From Eledone cirrhosa (taxonomy: Eukaryota), in assembly GCA_964016885.1 (NCBI GenBank), contig OZ024747.1, positions 82,212,001 through 82,276,000 of the forward strand: 64,000 bases of DNA. The letters are read 5' to 3'. Positions 1,976-62,140 of this stretch are shown piece by piece. Under the pieces are notes generated by a model, which was given only the letters and a program-made list of their open reading frames with translations, had not been told where the DNA came from and made no database searches. The position numbers and the translations under genes are program-made. The stretch's first letter is position 1. Each line of letters opens with the position of its first letter.

Positions 1976-2112
1976 TTCTCTGGTAGTTCAGAGATAGCTG
2001 TCGAAACGGTCGGGGTCCTGATTCTTTTCCTATTACCCACTCTACTACCCATAGTATCGAGTACTCTGGTGCGTTATGGTCCACCTGATTCATTACCACA
2101 CTTCCTTCGTTA
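1976..2112 (+). mobile_element. Truncated copy of HHR family B element
   Basis: TAGCTGTCGAAACGGTCGGGGTCCTG plus tail GAGTACTCTGGTGCGTTATGGTCCAC; segments shared with 12811-12900, 13035-13078, 60096-60170 and 61442-61592. Confidence 0.7.
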
Positions 2113-2173
2113 TATATATATATATATTTAGTTAGTCAGTTAAATATATATATATATATATGTATATATATTA

Positions 2174-2610
2174 GACCTGAAAAATGCCCAAGATCAAAAG
2201 AGCCACAGAATGTTATAATAAACCTTCAAAAGTGTGGGACTAGAGTTGTTGCTCAAAAATATTGTAATCATTATCTATTGTACACTCTGTGGCATCCTTT
2301 TATAAAAAAGAAACCCATAACGACCTCAAGACGACACGATAATTATTTAAGCTAATGTTCAATATCTCATATTAGATGTTTAGTAATGATTAATACGAAA
2401 TGCACTTAAACCGAATTCTATATTATAAATTCACTTAAATAATTATCGTGTCGTCTTGAGTTCGTTATGAGTCTCTTTTTTATAAAGGATGCCACAGAAT
2501 GTACGATAGATAATGATTACAATATTTTTGAGCAGCAACTCTAGTCCCACACTATTGAAGGTTTATTATAACATTCTGTGGCTCTTTTGAGCTTGCGCAT
2601 TTTTCAGGTC
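2174..2610. mobile_element. MITE-like fold-back element with ~180-bp TIRs and TA flanks
   Basis: TA|GACCTGAAAAATGC...GCATTTTTCAGGTC|TA; imperfect arms 2172-2351 and 2434-2612 around an ~80-bp spacer. Confidence 0.75.
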
Positions 2611-3148
2611 TAGTTTAATATTTTTTTAAGGCAACGCTTGTAATAACTTTAGTTAAACATGATATATATTAATAATAAATTATCGTTGTAATGTAATTAG
2701 ATTATATAATTGTTATTTTATAAATGATCTTATAAATATTATTGTAAGATGCATAAACATATTTTCAGACTTTTAATATAAACAACTACAAAAAACAATC
2801 AATATTAAATAAATATATTTTTCATACTAATTGTTATAGTTGAATTAATAAAAATTAAATATTACATACAAATAGTCTAGCATAATAATAATAAAATAAT
2901 CTAACATAATAATAAAAAAATAATCTAACATAAAACGAACAATAATATGGACAAATATACAAGTAAATATGATACAACCAATATTATAAGCATGTTATAA
3001 CCAACTGAAAAAAAAATAGTTAATATAAATTTAAAAAATCGTATATAACTTAACAATATAACTTACCAAAACGAGAAAAATATTTTGATGTTAAACGACG
3101 AAATACAGGAGGAAGATTCAAAAGCGAAACGATAAATAAACGTGCAAA

Positions 3149-3227
3149 CAAAATGGCGGATGCTTTTGAGCAACAATTACTCTCGTTGGCTGATTAGCCA
3201 ATAAGACGATGAAATTAGCCAATAAGA
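3149..3227 (+). promoter_or_regulatory. Promoter-like motif cluster (YY1-like site and two CCAAT boxes)
   Basis: CAAAATGGCGG at 3149-3159; ATTAGCCAATAAGA twice (3193, 3214; 21-bp spacing). No associated transcript is visible. Confidence 0.25.
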
Positions 3228-4729
3228 GGTTAGATTACAAAACATGTTTAGCAGCGATCACCACGGCGAGCGACACCCCTTGAATTTTTTATTCACAAGC
3301 TACGCATATATGTCAGACACGCAGACTTAAAACATTCTGTTGTTAGTCACTGCGTGTCTAAGAGAAAAAAAGTGAGAGAGAGAGAAAGAAAAGAGAGAGA
3401 GAGAGAGAGAGAGAGAGAGAGAGATAGATATGTGTGTGTGTGTGAGTACGCGTGTGTATGGTTATATGATATTATTTTGGTAACCGTACACGTTTTACCA
3501 TCTATATTAATATTTAAAATATATCTGGCCACATAAATTCACAATATTTTGCATAGATTGCTTTAAAAGTCTGACAATCGTCATTTTGTCCGAGAATTCT
3601 TCTTTAATAAGAATTGCTATAATTCAATTCGTCTTGTACATGTTGAGTTTATGAAAACATAAACAAAATTAGATTCTAAAATAAAATTGTAATCTTACAT
3701 TTCTTCTTTTCTCGGAAAACATGCTTTTTTTTCAAAGTATTGTACTCATTTACATAATTTCTCTAAATGAATTATTTTTGTAAGCAGTTACCCTTTCCAA
3801 TGTTTATTTCTGGGATTCAGTGTACACAATCTTGTTGATTGCTGCCTAGCGCTAAAAATAAGTTCCAAGAAACAACAAATAGTTTATTAATATTTTCTTG
3901 GAAAAGTGTGTTCCTATGCAATACTTCGACTAATTTGATGTAAATGGTATGGCCTACAGCTTACGACATACATGCATACATATATGCATTCCCTATTAAA
4001 GATTTAAAATATTTATAAAATGTGTGTATGCTTGCGCATACTTGTGTATTATATATTTTATTGTATCTAATATATTCAAATTGTAGTTCAAATGAATTCA
4101 GTAATCGTTTATAATATTCCATTCTATTCAACATATACAGTTAATAATAAGATAGATTACTTCATTTTCTATGCAGAAAATATATGCAAATGTGTGTACA
4201 TACGTGCCAATATAAATGCATGTACAAATATGTTTCCGTCGCCATTTTAATCATTTTTATCGTCGTTTAGGAGACTTTGTAACTGACGCTTGGTGATAAA
4301 ACTATCATCGAGTGATATATACAACATTTACTACGACGTCTCTTTCATTCAAACTCTTCTATGTTTATGAAGAAGACAAGTGTAAATCAATAGACTATTC
4401 TCGTTAAATTTACATGACTTATTTCATTAAATTTAATTTAATGTATGACAGCGTCGTCTCAACATCTTACAACACATCAGTCGCCAATTAGATTAGATAC
4501 CAGAGCCAATGCGACAAATTGGCAGAGTTATTAGAGCGTCGAATTATTTAATCTGACGCTCTAACGATTTGTACCAGTCTTCTGCGCACTGAGTTTAAAT
4601 CCTATTGATGTCAACTTTACCAAATCAGTGGTCATATATTGGCAGAACTATTAAATAATCAGGCAAACGGGTTAGAACCTAAAGCAAAAAGAATACCAAT
4701 ACAATACTAGTAATGAAAGGCTTAAGTAA

Positions 4730-5040
4730 TCACATTGATGGCCTCCCCACAGCCCCGGCGGACAGAATAGAGAAGTCTTTTGCCTGGAGGATGGTAATGG
4801 AGATGTGCTGGAAGAGCCATTCCAACTCGCGAGGCTCACACCTGCGGCTAGCCAGCTCAGCACCTAAGGTGGTGAGTAGGGAGGTAGCCCTAGGACCGAG
4901 GACACCAGAAGTCTCCATTGCCAAGGGTACGACCGCAAACCTGTCGGAGAACGACCGGTATTTGGAGAGTTTGGCCTCCTCAGCCCGACGAGCAGCAGAA
5001 CCTGTGTTAGTTGCCGACTGCACCAGGTTGCCGCTGGGGG
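4730..5040 (-). pseudogene. C-terminal restriction-like endonuclease (RLE) fragment of a CRE/R2-group non-LTR retrotransposon
   Basis: Peptide AARRAEEAKLSKY..FAVVPLAMETSGVLG..LFQHISITIL fits the AE-K-KY...P-A-ET-G pattern of RLE domains; local GC-rich island. Confidence 0.75.
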
Positions 5041-60170: not shown

Positions 60171-60377
60171 TCGGTCATGAATGACCATGATTTTGCACCT
60201 AGAAAGTTCCTCTACGAGGCAGAAGCATGGGAAAAGTATGTTTGTAAATAATGATACAATTCGCTTCAAGCTCTGAACGCCATGTATTTACTTCCAAATA
60301 CGATTTATTAGTCAGTGAAAGAGTATATGTAGAATAAGGAAAATGCGAAGTTCGGTGTAGACGTTAAATAATCCTTT

Positions 60378-60425
60378 ATTAACAAAGCTGTGATACATTG
60401 AAATACGTATCACAGCTTTGTTAAT
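60378..60425. repeat. 19-bp-arm hairpin containing GAAA-TACGTA-TC, abutting (TA)n
   Basis: ATTAACAAAGCTGTGATAC / GTATCACAGCTTTGTTAAT. Confidence 0.7.
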
Positions 60426-61241
60426 ATATATATATATATATATATATATACGTACGTACATACAACCGTTGAGCGGTAGGAATCTACTAATTCAATATAT
60501 ATATATATTCGAAACATCTGCTTAATAAGAAAAATGTTAGTTCTGTTAGAAATATCTCTCGAAATCTTACTTTTTTGGGAAATAAATCAAAATACATTAG
60601 GTGTATATTTCGTTAGGAATATGGTAACAATATCGTTAAAGAACAGATATTTAGTGTGTAAATTTTGGAAAGCTTTCTGGACGCTTACTCACTCTTCCAT
60701 TTTATGGCAGTTGCTTAGTTAAGTGAACGATCAGACAATTATTTGGGAAATAAATCTGATATTCGCTGTTGTAATGCTTTTCTCAAAGTTATTAGAGTGA
60801 AAATGGCAGAAATTCGCTTAAAACGGATAGGTAAATCAACTTCTAATTAGACATACTTGCAGCTTTATATTTGATTTACAGCATTCAATAAATTTCTTTT
60901 ATTCTTCTAATACGGTTTTCGCTCGTTGGACTATGGTCATACTGGAACAGAGCACTAAGGATTGTTTATTAGGATCAGTTATATCAACTGTCAGTGTGGT
61001 GTCAGGTAGTAATTTAATCGTTCTTGGAAGATACAAAATGCTACATTAATAGAGTAGGGCATGTCCGTTGAAATGTGCCGTGTTTCTGTATTTGCCGATA
61101 TAAACACATACATACATACATACATGATGATATGATGGCTGCCCCCTCGTTTTCGAGTATGGCCATTGCACGATATACCATTATTAATAATTATTAATTA
61201 ATTCTATCATGCAATGCCTGTGCGTGAAGATTATACATACA

Positions 61242-61441
61242 NNNNNNNNNNNNNNNNNNNNNNNNNNNNNNNNNNNNNNNNNNNNNNNNNNNNNNNNNNN
61301 NNNNNNNNNNNNNNNNNNNNNNNNNNNNNNNNNNNNNNNNNNNNNNNNNNNNNNNNNNNNNNNNNNNNNNNNNNNNNNNNNNNNNNNNNNNNNNNNNNNN
61401 NNNNNNNNNNNNNNNNNNNNNNNNNNNNNNNNNNNNNNNNN
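61242..61441. other. Assembly gap (200 N)
   Basis: Run of N. Confidence 1.
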
Positions 61442-61592
61442 ATCCGAACTAGATCGGATCTAGCTGTCGAAATGGCCGGAGCTCTGCCGTCGGGGTCATG
61501 ACTCTTTTCCTATTACTCACTCTACTACCCTAAGTATCGAGTACTATGGTGCGTTATGGTCCACCTGGTATCTTACCACACTTTCTTTGTTA
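61442..61592 (+). mobile_element. HHR family B 3' half plus tail ending in (TA)n
   Basis: GCTGTC-GAAA-TGGC cggagctct GCCG-TC-GGGG followed by the family tail. Confidence 0.7.
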
Positions 61593-62027
61593 TATATATA
61601 TATATATATATATATATGTGTGTGTGTGTGTGTGTGTGTGTGTGTGTGTGTGTGTGTGTGTGTGTGTGTGTGTGTGTGTGTGTTGGCTCAGTCACTGGAA
61701 CACGCCGATAGAAAGTCTGCAGAATTCAAATACCTCCAAGCACAATCTTGTCCTCCATCATTTCTAGGTCAATAAATAAAGTAACATTCCAGTGGTGGGG
61801 TCAATATATTTCCTTCTCCCTTTGCCATTTCCATCTTTTACTTACTCTCCTTTTCTCTCTAAAAGAAATAAGATGTGTTTAGACACGGCGAGTGATTAAC
61901 ATCGGTATGTCTAAACACAAGATATGCCATATGTCATAACGTCACTCATACGAATACCTCAAATGACCAAGGTCCATGGTTGAACACACAAACATATATA
62001 TATTACATATGTCATTACTACAACAGA

Positions 62028-62140
62028 GGTCCGACGAGCTTTGATTCCAGAGACGGGCCAGATCGAACCTTGAGCTGATCAATAACGAAACGCACGTCGC
62101 CAACCAATAAACGTAATAAAGGTTTAACTAATCGTCCTTG
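62028..62140 (+). mobile_element. HHR family D copy
   Basis: GGT-CCGACGA-G...-GAAA-CGCACG-TC-GCC then AATAAA; core is one substitution from CTGACGA. Confidence 0.65.

Follow-up and report, generated by a model that had tools for sequence, protein, structure and literature searches.

Predicted hammerhead motifs at (TA)n tracts in the genome of Eledone cirrhosa: probable 3' ends of truncated Penelope-like elements and related tandem units

Introduction

Much of what bears on the hammerhead motifs discussed here is already in print. For Penelope-like elements (PLEs) this includes terminal-repeat hammerheads, truncated single motifs, opposite-strand pairs and the U3-A8 core, and further Hydra TA targeting, inverted arms, two alternative 3' ends, an octopus Hydra family and the derivation of retrozymes from PLEs. 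That single motifs represent the 3' ends of truncated PLEs was proposed by Cervera and de la Pena 2014 (PMC4209133), and the marks of the Hydra clade (viz. a CxCx5C linker, CxxC, a terminal CxH, DKT and RWK) are those defined in PMC8557442. The annotation of Octopus vulgaris describes 31 recently active Penelope-like families, and the word 'hammerhead' is absent from its main text. The present work concerns a stretch of 64,000 nucleotides from Eledone cirrhosa (assembly GCA_964016885.1, 3.0 Gb; contig OZ024747.1, positions 82,212,001 to 82,276,000, forward strand), referred to as the window, which has 33% G+C and is rich in (TA)n. A first-pass annotation of this window described several families of hammerhead-bearing units, almost all adjoining (TA)n, as a large radiation of non-autonomous retroelements. 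These families are designated here by the letters A to J, and L numbers denote loci from elsewhere in the genome. The observation is real, and it is mostly explained by known PLE biology at an unusual density.

Results

The short units of families B, C, D1, D2, E, G and H are, with a probability that we place at about 0.85, mostly the 5'-truncated 3' ends of endonuclease-plus PLEs inserted in (TA)n and bearing a predicted type I hammerhead, six of these families being of the Hydra type. This is indicated by the fact that copies of all seven families extend upstream into GIY-YIG or reverse transcriptase (RT) coding sequence, and the Penelope-like link suggested earlier is upheld. The shared upstream sequence forms a truncation ladder of ~20 to >1,400 nt, which in B, C, D1, D2, E and H reaches endonuclease open reading frames (ORFs). 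For family G a full-length element is available (L184), in which an ORF of 938 amino acids (aa) containing RT and GIY-YIG lies between two hammerhead copies, and the window copy is 90% identical to both terminal repeats. In Pfam this ORF scores 28.3 bits for GIY-YIG (above the cut-off) and E 2e-6 for RVT_1 (below the cut-off), and its linker spacing looks Neptune-like when judged against published alignment rows. The endonuclease is found upstream of family B in L124, L147 and L150, and in L196 an RT piece, the endonuclease and the motif follow in this order; for family C, L193 and L085 are colinear from endonuclease to motif (87-90% over two main blocks). Similar endonuclease links are provided by L254 and L259 for D2, by L212 with L188 for E, and by L262 and L269 for H, other copies of which have an intact core with a Hydra-type endonuclease ~200 nt upstream. 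RT followed by endonuclease is thus seen in G (as one ORF) and B, and the endonuclease part only in C, D1, D2, E and H.

The endonuclease upstream of B, C, D1, D2, E and H contains the CxCx5C linker, and this linker together with the terminal Hydra motifs could be read in L150, L124, L188 and L193. A Pfam search with the Hydra-type endonuclease pieces matched 0 families. In the ESM Atlas the piece from family B matched unnamed clusters at 0.95-0.97, one set of which has GIY-YIG in 23% of its members. Its 109 longer homologues, mostly 530-800 aa in length, show DK[TS] in 100, CxCx5C in 92, a terminal CxH in 94 and RWK in 53 cases; DKT and RWK were seen in these homologues and not in the genome copies. 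A GIY-YIG search of the genome gave 10,596 candidates, 150 of which were scored. The assignment of family C to an ORF of 1,056 aa in L192 was considered and dropped, as that ORF has its own 3' untranslated region (UTR) and C follows a Hydra-type endonuclease. The ORF in question (L192:1911-5078) is an uninterrupted PLE ORF with a Nematis-like linker, located within an inverted two-arm insertion, and it has a short hammerhead-like motif of its own in the 3' UTR.

A rival reading, that of the first-pass annotation, is that the units are mainly separate non-autonomous hammerhead retroelements (retrozymes, or similar to short interspersed elements, SINEs). Some observations agree with this: A and F are non-coding tandems; four tandem arrays account for 32 of the 65 motifs sampled from the genome (see below), and two such units that were checked have no ATG ORF of >30 aa; most single copies are <400 bp; and for I and J a coding link was not found. 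However, the truncation ladder ends in endonuclease ORFs for six families, and a full-length element has G as its terminal repeat. The non-autonomous reading is therefore improbable overall and largely refuted for the seven families named above, most units being the 3' ends of coding PLEs and only A and F non-coding.

The sites in the window are as follows.

1976-2110, plus strand: family B, 5'-truncated, with no 5' core, helix III partly deleted, a long 3' tail and then (TA)n.
12811-13085, plus strand: family B two-arm insertion with Hydra-type PLE 3' end; inverted long tail, core 12984-12990 (C3/A8 mismatch), helix II region of 56 nt, GAAA 13047, short end and then (TA)n.
19333-19829, plus strand: family C (subfamily 1) fold-back with perfect arms of 182 nt, core 19514-19520, helix II region of 101 nt, GAAA 19622, long tail on the right arm.
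20189-20355, plus strand: family D2, inverted-tail piece and 5'-truncated copy without the 5' core, GAAA 20288, Hydra-type PLE 3' end.
20490-20750, plus strand: family D1 two-arm insertion with intact motif, core 20616-20622, helix II region of 62 nt, GAAA 20685.
25200-25460, plus strand: family J 3' end with a minimal hammerhead (core 25347-25353), which has undergone point changes at this site.
26402-29417, both strands: family A, non-coding 466-bp tandem, retrozyme-like, with an inverted arm and six identical type I motifs; cores start at 26742, 27208 and 27674 (minus) and at 28207, 28673 and 29139 (plus).
44057-44305, minus strand: family G, intact U3-A8 hammerhead, core 44156-44150, GAAA 44136, plus an inverted arm.
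45737-46900, plus strand: C-type insertion absent from the first-pass annotation; inverted tail, Hydra-type endonuclease fragment (45782-45928) and repeated 3' UTR start; a hammerhead end was not found in this insertion.
49721-50011, plus strand: family C (subfamily 2), intact, core 49807-49813, helix II region of 116 nt, GAAA 49930, short end and then (TA)n.
51464-51659, plus strand: family H two-arm insertion, truncated within helix II, GAAA 51543.
57665-57935, plus strand: family F two-arm insertion, part of a 260-bp tRNA-headed tandem unit, PLE-type ends, GAAA 57868.
58569-58708, plus strand: family E, inverted tail and truncated copy, core destroyed at the junction, GAAA 58666.
58956-59227, minus strand: family E fold-back, Hydra-type PLE 3' end; canonical core 59115-59109 made by the junction.
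59943-60072, plus strand: D-like copy with changed core and helix III palindrome lost.
60096-60190, plus strand: B-like copy truncated within helix II, GAAA 60114.
60150-60424, minus strand: family I two-arm insertion, each arm of which is truncated at GAAA; short-arm GAAA 60400 on the plus strand.
61442-61590, plus strand: B-like copy after an assembly gap, GAAA 61469, long tail and then (TA)n.
62028-62141, plus strand: D2-like copy in which U4 of the core has become C, interrupted by a tRNA-type SINE.

All of the motifs listed earlier are present in the sequence, but they differ in their state. Nine are intact at the locus (the six of the array and those at 20616, 49807 and, on the minus strand, 44156) and five are damaged (viz. 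19514, where the fold-back cuts helix I to 2 bp, 12984, 25347, 59950 and 62031). Six are truncated, the 5' core being present in other copies of their families (1976, 60096 and 61442 for B, 20189 for D2, 51543 for H and 60400 for I), and E (two sites) and F are without a native canonical core. The individual assignments were not all confirmed. The supposed orphan 3' half at 44127 is complete on the minus strand once a U3-A8 core is allowed; the canonical core at 59115, regarded as a hammerhead of family E, was created by an inversion junction, E's own core having U4 changed to A; and at 57868 (family F) both a valid 5' core and helix I are missing. The proximity to TA repeats is seen at 16 of 18 sites, which lie within 250 nt of (TA)5, and the targeting of microsatellites and the palindromic nature of helix III are likewise upheld. 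The AATAAA said often to follow the motif does exceed its background of 4.4%, but it is found after only 16 of 65 motifs genome-wide.

The frequency of the motifs was compared with that in shuffled sequence. A strict type I descriptor (5' core, spacer of <=160 nt, GAAA, palindromic helix III and UH) gave 10 matches in the window versus 0.51 +- 0.73 (maximum 4) in 200 block shuffles, six of the 10 belonging to the 466-bp array and one, at 177, resembling chance; hammerhead 3' halves numbered 55 versus 16.4 +- 4.1. For the genome, 79 evenly spaced stretches of 10 kb (790 kb) were sampled with a fixed descriptor, tuned on the first 400 kb (16 matches) and then applied to the second 390 kb (49 matches). 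The result was 65 motifs in 25 of the 79 stretches, whereas 10 shuffles gave 0-2 and 8 decoy cores 0-3. A looser descriptor that allowed a hairpin helix III had matched the satellite of L323 (20 rows) in a chance-like manner, and it was tightened before the second sample. The alternative that the motifs are chance matches in DNA rich in AT and palindromes, and in part products of inversion junctions, can point to this satellite, to the match at 177 and to the junction-made core at 59115. However, in view of the 20- to 90-fold excess over shuffles and the >20-fold excess over decoy cores, and of the multicopy families, covariation and position at PLE 3' ends, we regard it as extremely improbable and, by the shuffle and decoy counts, refuted.

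Besides the 32 motifs in tandem arrays, the sample contains 33 dispersed ones, which scales roughly to ~1e5 dispersed motifs in the genome, or ~2.5e5 including the arrays, which are clumped. With a near-identical descriptor the window has 8 matches versus about 5 expected from the sample, and it is thus typical of the genome. (TA)5 is present within 250 nt downstream of 47 of the 65 motifs and, by a hand count, of 29 of the 33 dispersed ones, as compared with 20% of random positions and 20 of 126 SINE copies. Searches of the genome with the individual family queries yielded 47 to 2,652 first-look candidates each (40 scored and 12-30 loci read per query), and in this respect the description as a large radiation holds good. 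In an Rfam search of the whole window (321 matches), the 150 matches listed were nearly all miRNA models on microsatellites, with no hammerhead among them.

The insertions share a common anatomy. Downstream of GAAA, the 3' end of each family falls at one of two fixed positions, which are separated by 40-150 nt (B, +42/+124; C, about +73/+224; D1, about +65/+141-149; D2, +74/+168; E, +49/+139; F, +13-24/+58-63). The arms of two-arm insertions differ, one having the short and the other the long end, in 88 of 93 cases (66 of 70 without the query-biased family E), the order of the two arms being either way round in B, C and D1. At the junctions there is either an overlap of up to 10 nt or a short inserted piece, and those of E fall mostly on one 7-nt micro-palindrome, the E query itself having contained a fold-back. 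As a long-tailed arm cannot derive from a short-ended cDNA, two priming events, one per nicked target strand, are inferred. In vitro, the protein of an anole PLE nicks both strands and its RT starts at two internal sites (PMC11167929). By the mechanism that we propose, the element endonuclease would nick both strands of (TA)n, RT would start from each nick at one of two internal start sites, and both cDNAs would in most cases end prematurely and be joined through short homologies or micro-palindromes, giving the order TA, inverted arm, sense arm, TA. Because the start sites are just downstream of the hammerhead, even the shortest copies would keep it, which would explain the density of motifs. 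The predicted type I hammerhead would cleave only when two copies pair via the palindromic helix III. By prediction these palindromes form no hairpin alone, and intermolecular duplexes of -6.8 to -14.7 kcal/mol, energies that, as modelled, fit what such a dimer requires. The one-short, one-long rule provides a genomic test of the two-start-site model of PLE tails. In L129, L175, L266, L270, L280 and L315 the ends of different PLE families are often stacked within one TA tract, so that the TA target of one family is apparently reused by others.

Most of the dispersed motifs have a long helix II and lie outside the published descriptors. The spacer between core and GAAA exceeds 24 nt in 36 of the 65 sampled motifs and in 26 of the 33 dispersed ones (26-116 nt), and the helix II region measures 56-116 nt in B, C, D1 and D2. 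By comparison, the published Hydra motifs have spacers of about 9-24 nt (PMC8557442, File S2), two spike-moss PLE-X1 motifs with longer loops are marked as deviating, and the core search of the same paper allowed 7-17 nt, cores 35-50 nt apart being termed 'half cores'. Across genome loci there are 285 matches in 39 clusters. The long spacers are mostly predicted to adopt a rod-like fold with as many as 43 pairs; versus mononucleotide shuffles, z is below -3 for many of them and weaker for several. Helix II pairing is kept across subfamilies, and covariation is clear in two groups: the D group (98.7% of cells paired, both sides changed in 3 of 19 pairs) and that with spacers of 26-31 nt (93.5% and 9 of 10). 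In C, 99% of cells are paired and 1 of 32 pairs is changed on both sides; slid controls are 14-71% paired. Considering this covariation, the long helix II is likely retained as a stem; its internal loop may supply the contact between helices I and II, or the stem may bind an element protein. Our literature search (here and below, open-licence papers and bioRxiv) did not find long-helix II PLE hammerheads described as a majority class. As such motifs escape the descriptors, counts of genomic ribozymes may be too low, and claims of hammerhead-less PLE clades may be wrong.

The cores were read with the standard hammerhead numbering, in which C3 pairs with G8. At the family level a conserved core with helices I-III is present in A, C, D1, D2, G, H, I and J, but it fails in B, where a C3/A8 mismatch is fixed in 22 of 29 copies, in E, which has U4A in non-inverted copies, and in F, which has A9G and lacks helix I. 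It could be argued from these fixed changes that the identity of the elements is right but that the motifs, especially those with a long helix II or a variant core, have lost cleavage and persist as structures that bind protein or position the RT. Insertions retain sequence flanking the cleavage site on either side; in vitro insertion of the anole PLE was unaffected in hammerhead mutants and no RNA-seq ends occur at the site (PMC11167929); and weak cleavage has been published for minimal PLE hammerheads. However, most families keep an invariant core despite very different helix sequences, and the U3-A8 pair, retained by 3 of 34 B relatives, is a compensatory change. Loss of cleavage thus appears to us the less likely outcome, although one with a real chance of being correct.

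Families A and F encode nothing and likely borrow PLE enzymes. Judged by its tandem non-coding unit (period 466 bp; longest ATG ORF 112 aa) with a predicted hammerhead in every unit (6 of 6), A is classed as a putative retrozyme of the type without long terminal repeats (non-LTR). Across 30 loci it has 1-6 motifs per locus on one strand, and its monomer is strongly self-paired (z about -8.6). Rfam gives a weak HH9 match (18.5 bits, E 0.043, below the gathering score). In the window, the arms of the array are inverted and 100% complementary, and both of its ends adjoin (TA)n at two different unit positions. A parent PLE of A was not found. Family F, a 260-bp tandem with 2,510 genome candidates, shows a full tRNA fold (48-51 bits in Rfam, which found no ribozyme in the array), and ARAGORN at a lowered threshold calls a gene in 19 of 30 loci. 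It is a candidate SINE that may be mobilised by a PLE; a tRNA-headed PLE-mobilised unit was not found described in the literature search. An F-type 260-bp unit is also present at L342:900-2050. A likeness of F to helix II of B (z 4.2, score 38, below the best shuffle at 43) was not used. Further hammerhead tandem arrays occur in L364 (period of 556 bp; helix II region of 51 nt), L353 and L355 (310 bp) and L390 (about 422 bp).

Outside the window, where no motif of this kind was found, there is a second form of predicted hammerhead. The end of the published Octopus Naiad consensus has its hammerhead blocks in the order site, GAAA, CUGAnGA, which is the type-SGC order. In 1.97-1.99 Mb of genome loci a generic SGC descriptor gave 6 matches, and a second one 27, of which 25 belong to one superfamily at about 22 distinct places (controls, 1-2 in three shuffles and 0-6 for five decoys). 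The superfamily has fixed spacing, and its intact core was selected by the search. In a gapless alignment of 17 distinct sequences (excluding two chance-like matches, one deletion copy and duplicate or near-duplicate rows), 91.3% of cells pair and 18 of 23 pairs change on both sides, a level reached by 0 of 500 shuffles; slid controls pair at 31-48%. Helices I and III, whose pairing was required by the search, are 98% paired with both-side change in 6 of 6 and 3 of 5 pairs, and covariation is also seen in two outer helices that were not selected for, at 5 of 6 and 3 of 5 pairs. Helix II is the least secure part, with one pair only after CUGAnGA (13 of 17 paired, with covariation); beyond that pair, the strand has its partner in upstream sequence (81% paired, with both-side change in 3 of 5 pairs). 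Tandem (520-740 nt) and inverted arrangements are seen, the copies adjoin TA repeats, and their ends fall near +23 and +62-108. The 79 sampled stretches contain about 10 copies, spread over 6 stretches, which scales to the order of 3e4 in the genome; examples are L040:1306-1385 (+), L252:2298-2377 (-), L369:8528-8607 (+) and L247:606-685 (+). No ORF was found upstream of them, including in five extensions of 4 kb, and no colinear ORF of the Naiad kind (GIY-YIG at the N-terminus, RT at the C-terminus).

In the Naiad consensus file (PMC8557442, File S5), 7 of the 19 CTGATGA places shown have the SGC layout with complementary stems, viz. three near-identical Acropora records, one probably from Morbakka, one unnamed and two from Octopus; the link between Naiads and this motif depends on these consensus ends as read by eye. 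Three other Naiad 3' ends, likewise read by eye, show type I cores separated by ~45-55 nt, the base of helix II being paired; these may correspond to the authors' half cores. According to PMC10085705, none of the type-SGC RNAs described there occurs in the genome of a known organism save one doubtful bacterial case, and our literature search found none in PLE-type repeats. On balance we favour the interpretation that the genome holds tens of thousands of predicted type-SGC-like hammerheads in PLE-mobilised tandem repeats, which would make them the first such motifs located on a chromosome of a known organism, and that in many Naiad PLEs, from corals to octopus, this motif is the ribozyme that they seemed to lack. 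If so, the view that Naiads lack hammerheads would be overturned and natural, covarying, high-copy material would become available for this fold. Together with the long-helix II forms, it would also mean that PLE hammerheads have been undercounted, as descriptors assumed one topology and a short helix II.

Some other features of the window may be mentioned. A young abundant family (1307-1772, 1837-1975, 47176-47640 and 61164-61216; 97-98% identical) has a fixed 3' end adjoining TA-rich repeats; no hammerhead or ORF was seen in it, and it has 55 matches in genome loci. A stop-split transposase of Tc1/mariner type is present at 11566-12498 (HTH_Tnp_Tc3_2 weak, DDE_3 above the cut-off). Long imperfect palindromes by (TA)n at 2172-2612 and 51766-51928, with almost no match in genome loci, are possibly fold-back insertions, and 38205-41119 is a 2.9-kb minisatellite of purine-rich units of 16-17 nt.

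Discussion

Several points weigh against the interpretation of these units as truncated, hammerhead-bearing PLEs. The D1 link to an endonuclease comes from a single locus (L182), and no coding partner was found within 1.5 kb for I (20 loci; elsewhere, I retains a core, with a helix II region of ~52 nt) or J (12 loci). None of the loci retrieved is a full-length Hydra-type element that bears a long-helix motif at each end. Reading was confined to the 12-30 best loci per query, a selection biased towards the query, and the clade names, being assigned by motifs and not by a tree, are provisional. About 5 of the 29 TA-adjacent dispersed motifs are relatives of A, in which the TA tract may be internal to the unit. 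With regard to helix II, B shows no double-sided change among 5 sequences and the group with 48-53 nt did not align. Further, as the core changes of B, E and F are fixed in many copies, part of the radiation has spread without a canonical core, and cleavage is throughout a prediction from sequence.

A comparison with the known systems places these elements as follows. The families of the Hydra type resemble the Hydra-clade PLEs of PMC8557442 (including Hydra-1_Obim of Octopus bimaculoides) in the CxCx5C linker, the terminal CxH, the DKT of their homologues, the (TA)n target, the hammerhead near the 3' end, the inverted 5'-truncated arm and the optional tail. However, the helix II regions of B, C, D1 and D2 are far longer than the published spacers given above, and the tails measure 80-150 nt versus 30-40 bp. 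With the minimal PLE hammerheads (PMC4209133) the motifs of the present genome share the type I topology, the palindromic helix III, the U3-A8 variant, the prevalence of single copies from truncated PLEs, opposite-strand pairs 100-700 bp apart and many families per genome, but helix II is 6-8 bp there versus up to 43 bp here, and 2,000-9,000 motifs there compare with an order of 1e5 dispersed ones here. The type-SGC hammerheads of PMC10085705 agree with the permuted superfamily in block order, in the short linker joining the helix I strand to the helix II strand, in an extra helix and in the intact core. They were, however, published from metatranscriptomes and metagenomes, whereas the superfamily lies in chromosomal tandem repeats with PLE-type ends and has one pair after CUGAnGA, the remaining helix II strand pairing upstream. 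Family F is similar to the SINE-like hammerhead repeats of Schistosoma (PMC6765202) in its short tandem unit, a likely internal promoter module (in F, the tRNA fold) and a downstream GAAA motif, but F fails the hammerhead test and has PLE-type ends. Lastly, family A shares with the non-LTR retrozymes (PMC7229834; Li et al. 2026, bioRxiv 10.64898/2026.07.22.740005) a non-coding tandem with a type I hammerhead per unit, dispersed arrays and a strongly self-paired monomer; unlike them, it shows the PLE insertion anatomy directly, viz. an inverted arm, two 3' ends and a TA target.

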